Shown one piece after another: positions 58,860 to 62,220 of a stretch of 64,000 bases of DNA; the first letter of the stretch is position 1; every line of letters begins with the position of its first letter. The DNA is taken from the NCBI GenBank assembly GCA_039811685.1, contig JBDHZC010000002.1, forward strand, positions 320,001 through 384,000, read 5' to 3'. This DNA comes from Armatimonadota bacterium (lineage in GTDB: Bacteria; Armatimonadota; UBA5829; DSUL01). Position numbers and translations under genes: made by a program. Below the pieces are notes generated by a model. It ran no database searches. It saw only the letters and a list, made by a program, of their open reading frames with translations, and was not told the origin of the DNA.

Positions 58860-60509
58860 GTGACAGTGACAAAATTCGGCGCAATTGACGTCGGCACCAA
58901 CTCCATCCGGCTCCTGGTTGTCGCGATTGACGCACGCGATCACTCCTTCACCGTTATCCACGACATCAAAGAGACTGCGCGTCTGGGCGAAGGGGAGTTT
59001 CTACACAATAGAATCACACCCGAAGCTATGGATCGCGCCGTCACCGTGATCAGCCACTTTGTCGAAGTCGCCAGAGGCTATGAGGTGGGGGAAATCCGCG
59101 TCGTAGCCACATCCGCCGTGCGCGAAGCAGACAACCAGCAGGAGTTCCTGGACTGCGTCCGTGAATCCTGCGGCCTCGAGGTCGAGGTCATCTCGGGCAA
59201 AGAGGAGGCGCGTCTGATCTACCTGGGAGTTCTGGCCGGAGCGACGCTGCAGGGCAAGCAGGCGCTCTTCATTGACGTGGGAGGTGGCTCTACAGAGCTG
59301 GTCATCGGAGACCGGCAGCAGTACTATCTGCTCGAAAGTCTCAAACTGGGGACAATCCGCCTTACGAATCGCTTTCTGGGCGACGGGCGTGCGGCGGTCT
59401 CCAGGAAAAAATACGCACAACTGCAGGAATACATCCGCGGGGTAGCCGTGCACGCAGCGCGCAAGATCCACAATCTGGGCTTTGAGCTGGTTCTGTGCAG
59501 CTCGGGCACGGCGATAAATCTGGGAGAGATGGTCGCGGCCATGCTCGGTGAAAAACCCACCTCCATCCGCCAGTATCCAGTCCGCCTGGACGATATTACC
59601 AGAGTGCGTGAAATGCTGTGCAAAGCGCCCTATGACGAGCGGCGAAAGCTGCCGGGAATCAAGCCTGAGCGCGCAGATATAATGGTGGCCGGCGTTGCGG
59701 TCATCGAGACAATTCTGGAGCAGGTTGGAGCGCAGCAGATGCATGTGGCTGACTATGCTTTGCGGGAAGGTCTGGTCGTTGACCACATTATCCGCGATGA
59801 ACAGGCGAGAGAACACTTCACGGCTGTATCGCCGCGGAAGCGCAGCGTGCTGCAGCTTGCGCGAAGCTGTGGGTACGAGGCCGAACACGCAGAGCAAATC
59901 CGCCATCTCTGCCTGTCTCTGTTCGATCAGCTCTGGGAGCTGGGGCTGCACCGGATGAACCGTCACGACCGGGAACTGCTGGAGTACGGCGCTTATCTCC
60001 ACGACGTGGGTTTTTTTATCTCCCATACCAACCACCACCAGCACGCCTACTACCTGATTCGCCACAGCGAGCTGCTGGGGTTCAACGACCGTGAACAGGC
60101 GATTCTGGCCAATCTTGCGCTGTACCACCGCAAGTCCACTCCAAAGAAGAAGCACGCCGGTTTTATGGCTCTGGACAGCCAGGCTCGATCTCTTGTCGAA
60201 AAGCTCTCCTGCCTGCTGCGCATTGCCGAAGGGCTGGACAGAAGCCACCTGTCACTGGTCAGAAATATAACGCTGGAGCGGGATGACAATGGCGTGAAGA
60301 TGACGATAGACAGCGCGTCGGACTGTCAGCTTGAATTGTGGGGAGTGGAAAGCCAGCTTGGGGTATTCCGGTCCGTTTTCGGAGCGGCGATGTCGGTTTC
60401 GGTCCATCACGAAGCGGACTCGGGCGCGTCGGATAGCCGCACAGAGGATGTAACGGGCCGGGAGGCAGACAAGGTTAGCCTGACACTGCCAGAGCGATCC
60501 AGTGAGTGA
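58860..60509 (+). CDS. ppx: Full-length Ppx/GppA exopolyphosphatase with HD domain
   Basis: AIDVGTNS, ATSAVREA, ISGKEEARL, DVGGGSTE, LREG; HD part LHDVG...YHRK...LRIAEGLDR. Confidence 0.9.
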   Translation: MTVTKFGAIDVGTNSIRLLVVAIDARDHSFTVIHDIKETARLGEGEFLHNRITPEAMDRAVTVISHFVEVARGYEVGEIRVVATSAVREADNQQEFLDCVRESCGLEVEVISGKEEARLIYLGVLAGATLQGKQALFIDVGGGSTELVIGDRQQYYLLESLKLGTIRLTNRFLGDGRAAVSRKKYAQLQEYIRGVAVHAARKIHNLGFELVLCSSGTAINLGEMVAAMLGEKPTSIRQYPVRLDDITRVREMLCKAPYDERRKLPGIKPERADIMVAGVAVIETILEQVGAQQMHVADYALREGLVVDHIIRDEQAREHFTAVSPRKRSVLQLARSCGYEAEHAEQIRHLCLSLFDQLWELGLHRMNRHDRELLEYGAYLHDVGFFISHTNHHQHAYYLIRHSELLGFNDREQAILANLALYHRKSTPKKKHAGFMALDSQARSLVEKLSCLLRIAEGLDRSHLSLVRNITLERDDNGVKMTIDSASDCQLELWGVESQLGVFRSVFGAAMSVSVHHEADSGASDSRTEDVTGREADKVSLTLPERSSE

Positions 60510-61413
60510 AAGCGCAGCGGCTTACAGAACGGGCATATGGTCGCGCGTTGCGGCCGTGCGCGGCCCTGCAGCTATCATTGTCGGAGCAATCAGCTTCAGC
60601 GTCATGGCTATTGCAGTACGCTTTCTGACGCGCGCCGGTATTCCAGCCGGTGAGCTGGTTATGATCCGCTTCTCGATGGGGCTGGCCATGCTGGAAGCGC
60701 TGAGGATTGCCGGTGTCATCAACATCTCGCACCGGCGGTGGCAGGCTCTCTGGGGACGGGGCATCACCGGCGCGCTAGCAATTCTGTTTTACTTCCTCAG
60801 CATCCAGTACACCACACTCACCAAAGCTACGCTGCTCTCAAATGCCTATCCGGTCTTCGCAGCGCTTATGGCAGTGCTGGCGCTGGAGGAGAAAATTCAG
60901 TGGCCGACAGCCATCTCATTCGCACTGTCAGGGCTGGGAATGTGGATGGTTGCCCGTCCAGGCCCGGGTTGGGCGGTGGGAGACGGCTACGGCATACTGG
61001 GGGCTTTGACGGCGGGTATGGCCATCGTGTTTATCCGCCACCTGCGCAGAACTGAAAACCCGTTCTCCATCTTCTGGTATCTGTGCGCGTTCGGCTCGGC
61101 TCTGGGTGCGCTGACGTGCGCGCGCAACTTCGTTGTACCGTCTGGTGATCTCTTTGTTCTGATACTCGTCATGGGTATCACGAGCACACTGGGACAGCTT
61201 CTGATTACCTATGGCTTCGGCTACATTCGCGCCGGCGAAGGCTCCCTCATCAGTATGTCCACCGTCGCCTACAGCGGCCTGTTTGCGTGGTTTTTTCTGG
61301 GTGAGCGCCTGCCGGTGTCGGGCATGATTGGCGCGGGTCTGATTCTGGCCTGCGCAGCTTATCTGACTCTGCGCCCGCAGTCCGCAGCAGACGATTTCAT
61401 CCCGCGAGGATAG
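60502..61413 (+). CDS. EamA/DMT family transporter
   Basis: About ten hydrophobic segments in two repeats; RF, L.EK, LGE motifs. Confidence 0.88.
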   Translation: MSESAAAYRTGIWSRVAAVRGPAAIIVGAISFSVMAIAVRFLTRAGIPAGELVMIRFSMGLAMLEALRIAGVINISHRRWQALWGRGITGALAILFYFLSIQYTTLTKATLLSNAYPVFAALMAVLALEEKIQWPTAISFALSGLGMWMVARPGPGWAVGDGYGILGALTAGMAIVFIRHLRRTENPFSIFWYLCAFGSALGALTCARNFVVPSGDLFVLILVMGITSTLGQLLITYGFGYIRAGEGSLISMSTVAYSGLFAWFFLGERLPVSGMIGAGLILACAAYLTLRPQSAADDFIPRG

Positions 61414-61554
61414 TAGAGGCCGCGTCGCCCTCGCTCCTCACCACCGATGCTCACCTCACCTGCTCTGACGCTCTCTGCTCTGATATAGGGTCAGGTCGGC
61501 TACCCTGAAGAGTAGTACGCGCTGCTGGTAGTTTCGTGAAAAAGGGTTGACGAT

Positions 61555-61588
61555 GAAAAGGAGCGCAACTGAAGAAATTCAGCCGCGC
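61555..61588 (-). terminator. Probable terminator of the candidate sRNA
   Basis: GCGCGGCTGAA-tttc-TTCAGTTGCGC then TCCTTTTC on the - strand. Confidence 0.6.
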
Positions 61589-61797
61589 CGCTGCGACCAG
61601 CGATTGGAGTCCGCCCGGCTTCGGGCAGTCCAGAGTGAGGATGGCGAGGGCGGCGCCACCCTGACAAAATACGGCGGGCAGGGAAAGGAGAATGGAAAGC
61701 CTGCCCGCGAACCGCACAACCAATTGCAGCGCAATCCTGGGACTTATCGCGTAGCAACCGACCGTTCGGCGCGCCCCTGCGGACGCTTTGCGCGGCT
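61555..61797 (-). ncRNA. Candidate multi-hairpin small RNA (~240 nt) with C/U-rich loops
   Basis: Near-consensus promoter at 61832-61804, at least five consecutive hairpins, terminator at 61588-61555; no SD-supported ORF. Confidence 0.55.
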
Positions 61798-61803
61798 CAC
61801 GTA

Positions 61804-61832
61804 ATTATGCACATACTGCCAACGCGTGTCAA
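61804..61832 (-). promoter_or_regulatory. Sigma70-type promoter TTGACA-17-CATAAT
   Basis: Immediately after the response regulator stop, firing into the intergenic region. Confidence 0.7.
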
Positions 61833-61836
61833 GCCA

Positions 61837-62220
61837 TCAGTGCGACTTTTTTTCACGCTCACGCGTGTTATTGATGATGCGTTTCAATTCCTCTAGTTGG
61901 AACGGTTTGTAGAGGTACGTGTCCACACCCTGGCCTTCCGCAGCGGTCTCTGTCTCTTCCGTTGGATAGGCGGTCATCAGGACCACCGTCGCCTCTGGCG
62001 AGAACAGTTTTGCGGCACGCAGAAACTGAAGGCCGTCCATTCGTGGCATTCTCAAGTCCGCCAGGATCAGATCGAACGGCTGCTGACGGACTATGCCCAT
62101 TGCAGTAAAGGGTGAATCAGCGGCATCTACTCTACACCCTTCGATCTCCAGCAGCGTGAGCAACACCTGCAGCAGACTCCTGTCATCATCAACTACCAGA
62201 ACTTTTAGATCTTCGGGCAA
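61837..62220 (-). CDS. Single-domain response regulator
   Basis: VLVVDDD, DLILADLRMPRMDG, MTA, YLYKPF. Confidence 0.92.
   Translation of the reverse strand: MPEDLKVLVVDDDRSLLQVLLTLLEIEGCRVDAADSPFTAMGIVRQQPFDLILADLRMPRMDGLQFLRAAKLFSPEATVVLMTAYPTEETETAAEGQGVDTYLYKPFQLEELKRIINNTREREKKSH

Follow-up and report, generated by a model that had tools for sequence, protein, structure and literature searches.

The intergenic region described here lies in a window of 64,000 nucleotides (the whole stretch of DNA that was analysed), between a gene for a receiver-only response regulator (61837-62220; Pfam Response_reg, E = 3e-26) and a gene for an EamA transporter (60502-61413) that follows a Ppx/GppA gene, as identified by Pfam. 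On the minus strand, a promoter scan identifies a -35 box TTGACA (61832-61827) and, after a spacer of 17 nt, a -10 box CATAAT (61809-61804), which together match 11 out of 12 consensus positions and bear out the promoter of the original prediction. This is the only promoter-like site between 61000 and 62400, shuffled sequences giving 0.6 sites on average, and from its spacing the start of transcription is predicted near position 61797. The -35 box starts 4 nt past the stop codon of the response regulator gene, and no terminator could be found between the two with the terminator scan. The EamA gene is convergent with the putative transcription unit, which therefore has no same-strand gene downstream.

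The promoter is conserved in all 15 homologous loci examined, as TTGACA, a spacer of 16-18 nt with diverging sequence, and a -10 box, located 80-110 nt upstream of the hairpin H1 described below. The -10 box reads CATAAT in 13 of 13 loci from family f1, which includes the present genome (G000, the sole genome of its genus), and TATAAA or TATATA in family f5. In the f1 loci examined the transcription unit converges with EamA/ppx, in f5 with a comF-like gene, and its upstream neighbour differs between genera. A response regulator is found directly upstream only in G000; the location downstream of a response regulator, as first noted, is thus correct as a position, but the link is particular to this genome. 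A regulated gene on the same strand downstream, as expected for a riboswitch or another cis-regulatory leader, is absent from the f1 and f5 loci examined.

Minimum free energy (MFE) folding of the segment 61800-61550 (minus strand) yields -120.4 kcal/mol, compared to -100.6 +/- 4.9 kcal/mol for 200 shuffled sequences, none of which folds as well (z = -4.09). All hairpins that had been listed from inspection of the sequence are reproduced in this fold at the same positions, as is the terminator at the distal end, which is also found by the terminator scan. The 5' part (61798-61709) is a structured multi-helix junction in the consensus fold of nine f1 sequences. Helix P1, formed by 61795-61788 (CCGCGCAA) and 61719-61712 (UUGUGCGG), is present both in the MFE fold and in the covariation-supported consensus, and the consensus contains helices P2 (61786-61781 with 61776-61771), P3 (61770-61768 with 61763-61761) and P4 (61760-61746 with 61735-61721). 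The closing helix of this domain had originally been described as GCGCAA/TTGCGC; in the fold GCGCAA pairs with UUGUGC at 61719-61714, and TTGCGC (61734-61729) is the 3' strand of an inner helix. Conserved unpaired stretches in the domain are CAAAACGCU, GUGCCAAAAGGUCGG and the P4 loop GGGUCCCAGGAU, which contains GGA.

The junction is followed by hairpin H1, with a G+C-rich stem of 9 bp (61708-61700 with 61682-61674) and a loop of 17 nt, CUUUCCAUUCUCCUUUC (61699-61683), which is the proposed seed of the RNA and a putative anti-Shine-Dalgarno mimic. The U-rich tail CGUAUUUUGU (61673-61664) is the likely 3' end of a conserved short form. The remaining 3' extension (61665-61552), identified by folding and terminator scan, has no counterpart in relatives and consists of hairpin H2 (61662-61654 with 61646-61638), a short hairpin (61632-61605, around 61626-61613), another short hairpin (61602-61589), and the second terminator (61589-61562, followed by CCUUUUCAUC). 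The tail of this second terminator reads GCGCUCCUUUUCAUC (61566-61552, minus strand), so that a possible long form would again end in an anti-Shine-Dalgarno-like stretch, CUCCUUUU.

The consensus fold of the nine f1 sequences comprises 41 pairs, forming the junction P1-P4 and then H1. On this consensus 96.7% of the cells are paired, as compared to 34-44% in slid controls, and none of 500 shuffles is as good. Thirteen consensus pairs have changed on both sides, the type of covariation in relatives that had been suggested as a check of the RNA, and indels of 11 nt and 1 nt occur inside the 5' domain. P3 and H1 are invariant within f1, and therefore receive no support from covariation there. The locus is thus non-coding in character, with a structure kept by compensatory change.

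Sequence similarity to relatives (BLAST) begins at the -35 box and ends just after H1; beyond base 184 of the query, a part which covers four hairpins down to 61555, no similarity could be detected in relatives. The architecture of about 240 nt with five hairpins, as initially proposed, is therefore not a conserved one. As similarity ends after H1 and its U-rich tail, the conserved RNA would be about 133 nt long, running from 61797 to approximately 61665, with both ends deduced from sequence features. H1 and its tail are likely to be the terminator of this conserved RNA: the G+C-rich stem is followed by a U-rich tail in all f1 homologues that reach that far, and the convergent ppx frame of genus g3 seems to stop some tens of bases past H1. 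H1 was not called by the terminator scan because its 17-nt loop exceeds the limit of 3-8 nt used in the scan. In family f5 the tail is not U-rich, and H1 may not terminate transcription there.

Metatranscriptome contigs from two studies cover positions 61482-61784 and 61531-61753 at low depth (8.5 and 4.9); they carry no information on strand, start, end or level, and may include DNA carry-over. In G000 these contigs run past H1, and since they run through both terminators, albeit without strand, a longer form is conceivable; an additional form of about 245 nt is possibly made in this genome. The regulator gene is covered by separate contigs, starting at 61823 and 61864. In the runs examined, contig cover is missing over parts of 61200-61481 and 61785-61822, which is no proof of absence.

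Homologues of the region were found by BLAST in all five other genomes of family f1, together with a 37-nt match to H1 in the second family, f5, to which a pattern scan adds a second genome. Covariance model R1, searched against 53 genomes of the class, recovers six out of six f1 genomes (E = 1e-30 to 1e-38) and both f5 genomes (E = 5.5e-9 and 2.2e-7), the best match in any other genome having E = 0.046. The small RNA gene is thus present in all eight genomes of two families in one class of Armatimonadota, and a pattern scan of metagenomes yielded 14 matching contigs, 11 of which are homologues. All 12 aligned homologues have the same H1 stem and the same loop core UUCUCCUUUCC, and the 5' domains of f1 and f5 barely align. 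Within f1, the 35 nt of H1 are without any substitution, except for two loop bases in G002. In G000 the gene is present as a single copy. In G003 (C73; L002:1627-1850) a second copy of H1 follows directly behind the first, across 100 N, and most likely reflects a duplication in scaffolding or assembly and not a real tandem.

A variant of H1 occurs in G008, a member of family f4 (G008:C66:52654-52699; L132:287-330), in which the stem carrying an identical 16-nt loop differs by two compensatory pairs and one G-U change (R2, E = 1.2e-9). This variant provides support for the H1 stem, which is invariant in f1 and f5. The G008 hairpin, with loop UUCCAUUCUCCUUUCC, lies between two genes on the same strand, with a stop codon about 25 nt upstream and an AAGGUGA ribosome-binding site 4 nt downstream, is not followed by a U-tract, and is present in one of the five genomes of that genus. 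It may be a cis-acting version of the H1 module.

Thirteen further loci of the class were read for an H1-type hairpin, and only the one in G008 qualifies. Pattern hits with up to 3 mismatches in G040, G022 and G047, from the scan of the class, are coding-like and without hairpin, and were dropped as chance matches. The loop motif by itself matches 82 of 401 genomes of the phylum, and in 30 loci retrieved from outside the class no closing stem of at least 6 bp was seen around it. Weak R1 and R2 matches (E = 0.007 to 1) were read individually. Some of the loci in other families of the class, i.e. G023:C1:3298118-3298162 (L190), G014:C47:2306-2353 (L193) and G017/G013 (L088, L089), are terminator-like hairpins with large loops containing the related CU-rich words CUUCUCCUUUCC, UUCCCCUUUCC and CUCCCCUU, with E-values (0.007 to 0.16) that are not significant alone. 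A hairpin pattern scan of wider genome contigs gave 42 stretches, comprising 6 Armatimonadota homologues, 8 stretches from a Chloroflexota/Dehalococcoidia element, and 28 scattered stretches that were set aside, many of which resemble the antisense strand of ribosome-binding sites. The Chloroflexota/Dehalococcoidia repeat (L024, L025, L033, L040, L044, L053, L055, L058; two copies in each of three MAGs) has a hairpin with UUCUCCUUUCCC in its loop; it was rejected as a homologue, being probably a chance match and probably coding, as its opposite strand is an open frame in a by-eye translation.

Taken together, the locus has its own promoter, a 3' hairpin and, in f1 and f5, no same-strand gene downstream, and we consider it very probable that it is a conserved stand-alone gene for a non-coding small RNA.

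The most conserved part, the loop of H1, is predicted to be unpaired with a probability of 0.93-1.00 in 11 of 11 homologues. The 3' end of the 16S rRNA of G000 reads ...GGAUCACCUCCUUUCUAAAG, and the loop shares 8 contiguous letters with this tail, CUCCUUUC. The loop is therefore complementary to ribosome-binding sites of the GAAAGGAG type. An exposed C/U-rich loop facing Shine-Dalgarno-type sequences had been postulated in the original prediction, and its conservation (core 12/12) and accessibility agree with this. The loop had further been viewed as the complement of a Shine-Dalgarno sequence plus AUG start codon; the Shine-Dalgarno part holds, since UUCUCCUUUCC is invariant, but the AUG part does not, as the CAU triplet is replaced in 3 of the 12 aligned homologues (by GUA, UCC and ACC).

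Since the loop copies part of the sequence with which the ribosome docks on mRNA, its most likely action is to block the ribosome-binding sites of other genes. We propose that a sigma-70-type promoter drives synthesis of an RNA of about 133 nt, and perhaps also one of about 245 nt in G000, in which the covarying 5' multi-helix domain would serve as a scaffold. The working part would be the 17-nt loop of H1, with its core UUCUCCUUUCC mimicking the anti-Shine-Dalgarno tail of 16S rRNA. This loop could base-pair in trans with GGAAAGGAGA-type purine-rich ribosome-binding sites; the paired sites would be kept free of 30S subunits, and translation would be lowered. H1 and its U-rich tail may double as the intrinsic terminator and a plausible 3' end for Hfq binding; the G000 genome encodes both Hfq and CsrA. 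That the RNA is such a trans-acting regulator, its loop occluding the ribosome-binding sites of other genes, is in our estimate somewhat better than an even chance; the trans action, the occlusion and any target are putative. One observation speaks against occlusion: the H1 stem is invariant in both f1 and f5, beyond the needs of a terminator or of seed display, and this could point to recognition by a protein.

No specific target emerged from in silico searches of G000. Of 122 occurrences of GAAAGGAG in the genome, 25 precede the start of an open reading frame of at least 100 aa by 4-11 nt. Duplex energies of the loop with start regions average -9.8 kcal/mol, compared to -8.4 kcal/mol for internal coding windows and -7.9 to -10.8 kcal/mol for ten shuffled loops, and hence fail to separate the loop from shuffled loops on the start regions of G000, a crude set of 6842 open reading frames in a genome of 3.4 Mb. 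The top start-region matches belong to genes for unrelated proteins: an HlyIII-family protein, two PEP-CTERM proteins, a hexapeptide transferase, an HD-OB protein, a PIG-L protein and a protein with a purple-acid-phosphatase N-terminal domain. The HlyIII-family gene was rejected as a target, since relatives lack the site. The best complementary sites in G000 are mainly the antisense strands of the sibling RNA genes described below, and so are no targets.

One candidate target is suggestive, namely the gene at G000:C2:153562 for a secreted protein of 219 aa without a Pfam family. The sequence GGAAAGGAGAG is kept in its 5' leader in three genera, and would form 11 bp with the loop (counted by eye) in a duplex of about -19 kcal/mol. 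The leader (G000:C2:153500-153565; L209, L210, L211) is near-invariant over approximately 40-45 nt, the encoded proteins being 55-58% identical; as it is conserved as a whole, the conservation of GGAAAGGAGAG is not specific to pairing. A different kind of match is found on the plus strand at G000:C7:13910-13930 (L138:611-631), in the form of an unpaired purine stretch, GGGAGAGGGGAAUGGAAAGCG, complementary to the H1 loop over about 20 nt (-37 kcal/mol including G-U pairs). A 12-bp intrinsic terminator follows it immediately, a gene for an M14 peptidase lies about 120 nt upstream, and no conservation within the family was detected by BLAST. This stretch could be a partner or sponge RNA, or a 3' UTR.

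A second RNA family with a related seed was identified. Its units are about 65 nt long, with the seed at the start, followed by a G+C-rich hairpin and, in most of them, a T-run (16 copies read; loci L139, L160-L166, L170). The seed GCUUCCCACCCUCCUUUC, allowing up to 2 mismatches, has 5 to 11 matches per f1 genome, many of which are in tandem arrays of up to 4 copies. Each unit has the invariant seed GAAAGCUUCCCACCCUCCUUUCUC. G000 contains seven copies, all outside the window (C2:135609, C2:135818, C2:477172, C7:9414, C9:23310, C3:6506 and C5:184536). At the same mismatch limit the seed is found in 32 of the 53 genomes of the class, with a variant, CCUUCCCACCCUCUUUUC, in f2, f4 and f5, and in most copies from three genera it is invariant over 18-22 nt. 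Ten letters of the seed, CCUCCUUUCU, also occur in the 16S tail, and an ungapped comparison with the H1 loop region gives 16 identities in 21 positions. In 13 of the 16 copies read, GGAAC is present 39-42 nt upstream of the seed, which we take to resemble promoters of ECF sigma factors. The enterobacterial RNAs RybB and MicA, which depend on sigma-E, are likewise short (about 65-80 nt), carry their seed at the 5' end, and have a terminator and a GGAAC-type promoter. Their likeness concerns the sibling family only, in length, 5' seed, terminator and GGAAC promoter, presumed ECF-like from its consensus, and the sibling units differ from them in the seed; the RybB model gives a weak score of 24.1 bits, compared to a cutoff of 40. 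Matches of Rfam models to sibling and partner loci are all sub-threshold, the best being P15 with 27.8 bits against a cutoff of 70.

The existence of these siblings bears on a different explanation, in which the H1 loop and the sibling seeds are decoys of the 16S 3' tail, acting as global competitors of the ribosome for Shine-Dalgarno sequences or titrating a protein that recognizes the 16S tail (e.g. a factor for maturation or hibernation, or a nuclease). The stretches shared with the cell's own 16S tail, 8 letters in the loop and 10 in the sibling seed, are in line with this, as are the invariance of the sibling seed over a length greater than that of ordinary seeds, the lack of a specific target in our searches, and the invariant stem of H1 in f1 and f5. 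However, a single-copy RNA of modest apparent abundance would be a poor global competitor, no candidate binding protein was found, and the anti-Shine-Dalgarno motifs of NfeR1 and LhrC act on defined mRNAs (PMC10746234, PMC4132741). We regard the decoy explanation as unlikely. Its more far-reaching form, in which the small RNA and its siblings with ECF-like promoters constitute a network of 16S-tail mimics that floods the cell upon stress, competing for Shine-Dalgarno sites genome-wide or titrating a 16S-tail factor, we rate a shade lower. If true, such a network would globally reprogram the choice of translated mRNAs, instead of silencing a few targets.

Equally unlikely, in our judgement, is that the 5' multi-helix domain is the functional part, e.g. 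as a protein- or ligand-binding module, with H1 merely as its terminator. The junction is strongly backed by covariation, contains the conserved unpaired stretches mentioned above, including the GGA in the P4 loop, and CsrA is encoded in the genome. Yet this GGA motif is the only one, and CsrA sponges, by contrast, carry more than one; also, no riboswitch or protein-binding family of Rfam matches the domain. Moreover, it is the H1 loop core that is identical between f1 and f5, whose 5' domains hardly align, an invariant loop of 17 nt would be superfluous for termination, and the same loop recurs in G008 on a different stem and in a different context.

A role in cis, either as an antisense or 3'-end element for the convergent EamA/ppx genes, as the 3'-UTR tail of the response regulator mRNA or as a leader for a gene downstream, is distinctly less probable. 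It would fit the convergent synteny with ppx/EamA in the f1 loci examined, the lack of a terminator behind the regulator gene with the -35 box only 4 nt past its stop codon, and the position of the G008 hairpin between same-strand genes, just before a ribosome-binding site. But the convergent partner is a different gene in f5, the upstream gene changes from genus to genus, every copy examined has its own promoter, and neither f1 nor f5 has a same-strand gene behind the unit; in addition, the contigs over regulator and RNA in run X1 are separate, with a gap at the promoter, which is a weak hint in the same direction. Finally, that the region encodes a small protein is highly improbable: both candidate frames are open (61723-61451 on the minus strand, 90 aa; 61547-61804 on the plus strand, 85 aa), but neither has a Pfam match, H1 shows no third-position wobble and the neighbouring helices change by compensatory pairs, similarity ends right after H1 inside the 90-aa frame, and the plus-strand frame contains the indels of 11 nt and 1 nt.

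The preferred interpretation thus remains a trans-acting RNA that would occlude ribosome-binding sites through the loop of H1. A search with the models of Rfam 15, including RsaE/RoxS, 6C, alpha-r14 and RybB, gave no match at gathering score in the 64-kb window and none at E <= 10 in 61350-61900, in agreement with the proposal that the RNA is an undescribed one. In a full-text search of the literature no paper on small RNAs of Armatimonadota was found. Given the absence of both such a paper and an Rfam family, the present locus provides a well-bounded first regulatory RNA for the phylum, backed by covariation and with a testable seed. It adds one more independent lineage with a loop-displayed anti-Shine-Dalgarno motif and, together with its multi-copy siblings, suggests that these bacteria have a post-transcriptional layer of regulation, perhaps connected with envelope stress. 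As the mechanism would be of a known kind, the value lies in cataloguing and in an entry point, and not in a new principle.

Several systems in other bacteria are comparable in mechanism. In LhrC of Listeria monocytogenes, a CU-rich site in the terminator loop is functional and binds to the target's Shine-Dalgarno region (PMC4132741), and the RNA found here likewise has its CU-rich motif in a 3' hairpin loop. LhrC has three redundant UCCC sites as opposed to the single CU-rich site found here, and several near-identical copies per genome, as in LhrC, were not found for the present small RNA. The latter is single-copy, possesses a large covarying 5' junction, originates from another phylum, and has no relationship to LhrC in sequence or in Rfam. 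The sibling family is more like LhrC in this respect, being multi-copy, partly tandem and maybe driven by envelope stress, as LhrC is (PMC4132741).

NfeR1/alpha-r14 RNAs of rhizobia present ultraconserved anti-Shine-Dalgarno motifs in single-stranded form on variable stems, and are proposed to occlude ribosome-binding sites (PMC10746234). The display of an unpaired anti-Shine-Dalgarno motif in an otherwise diverging RNA is common to both. NfeR1 has three hairpins, each with CCUCCUCCC, whereas the present RNA has one loop with UUCUCCUUUCC, on a stem that is conserved in f1 and f5. The 6C RNAs of Actinobacteria and RoxS/RsaE of Firmicutes use C-rich loops that pair with G-rich ribosome-binding sites (PMC6486639, PMC8216469). 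They have C-runs in several loops, in contrast to the mixture of U and C here that copies the 16S tail itself, and their covariance models do not match. The RNA described here is a new small RNA family, of a mechanistic kind already known from other bacteria, and its resemblance to these precedents is one of mechanism.
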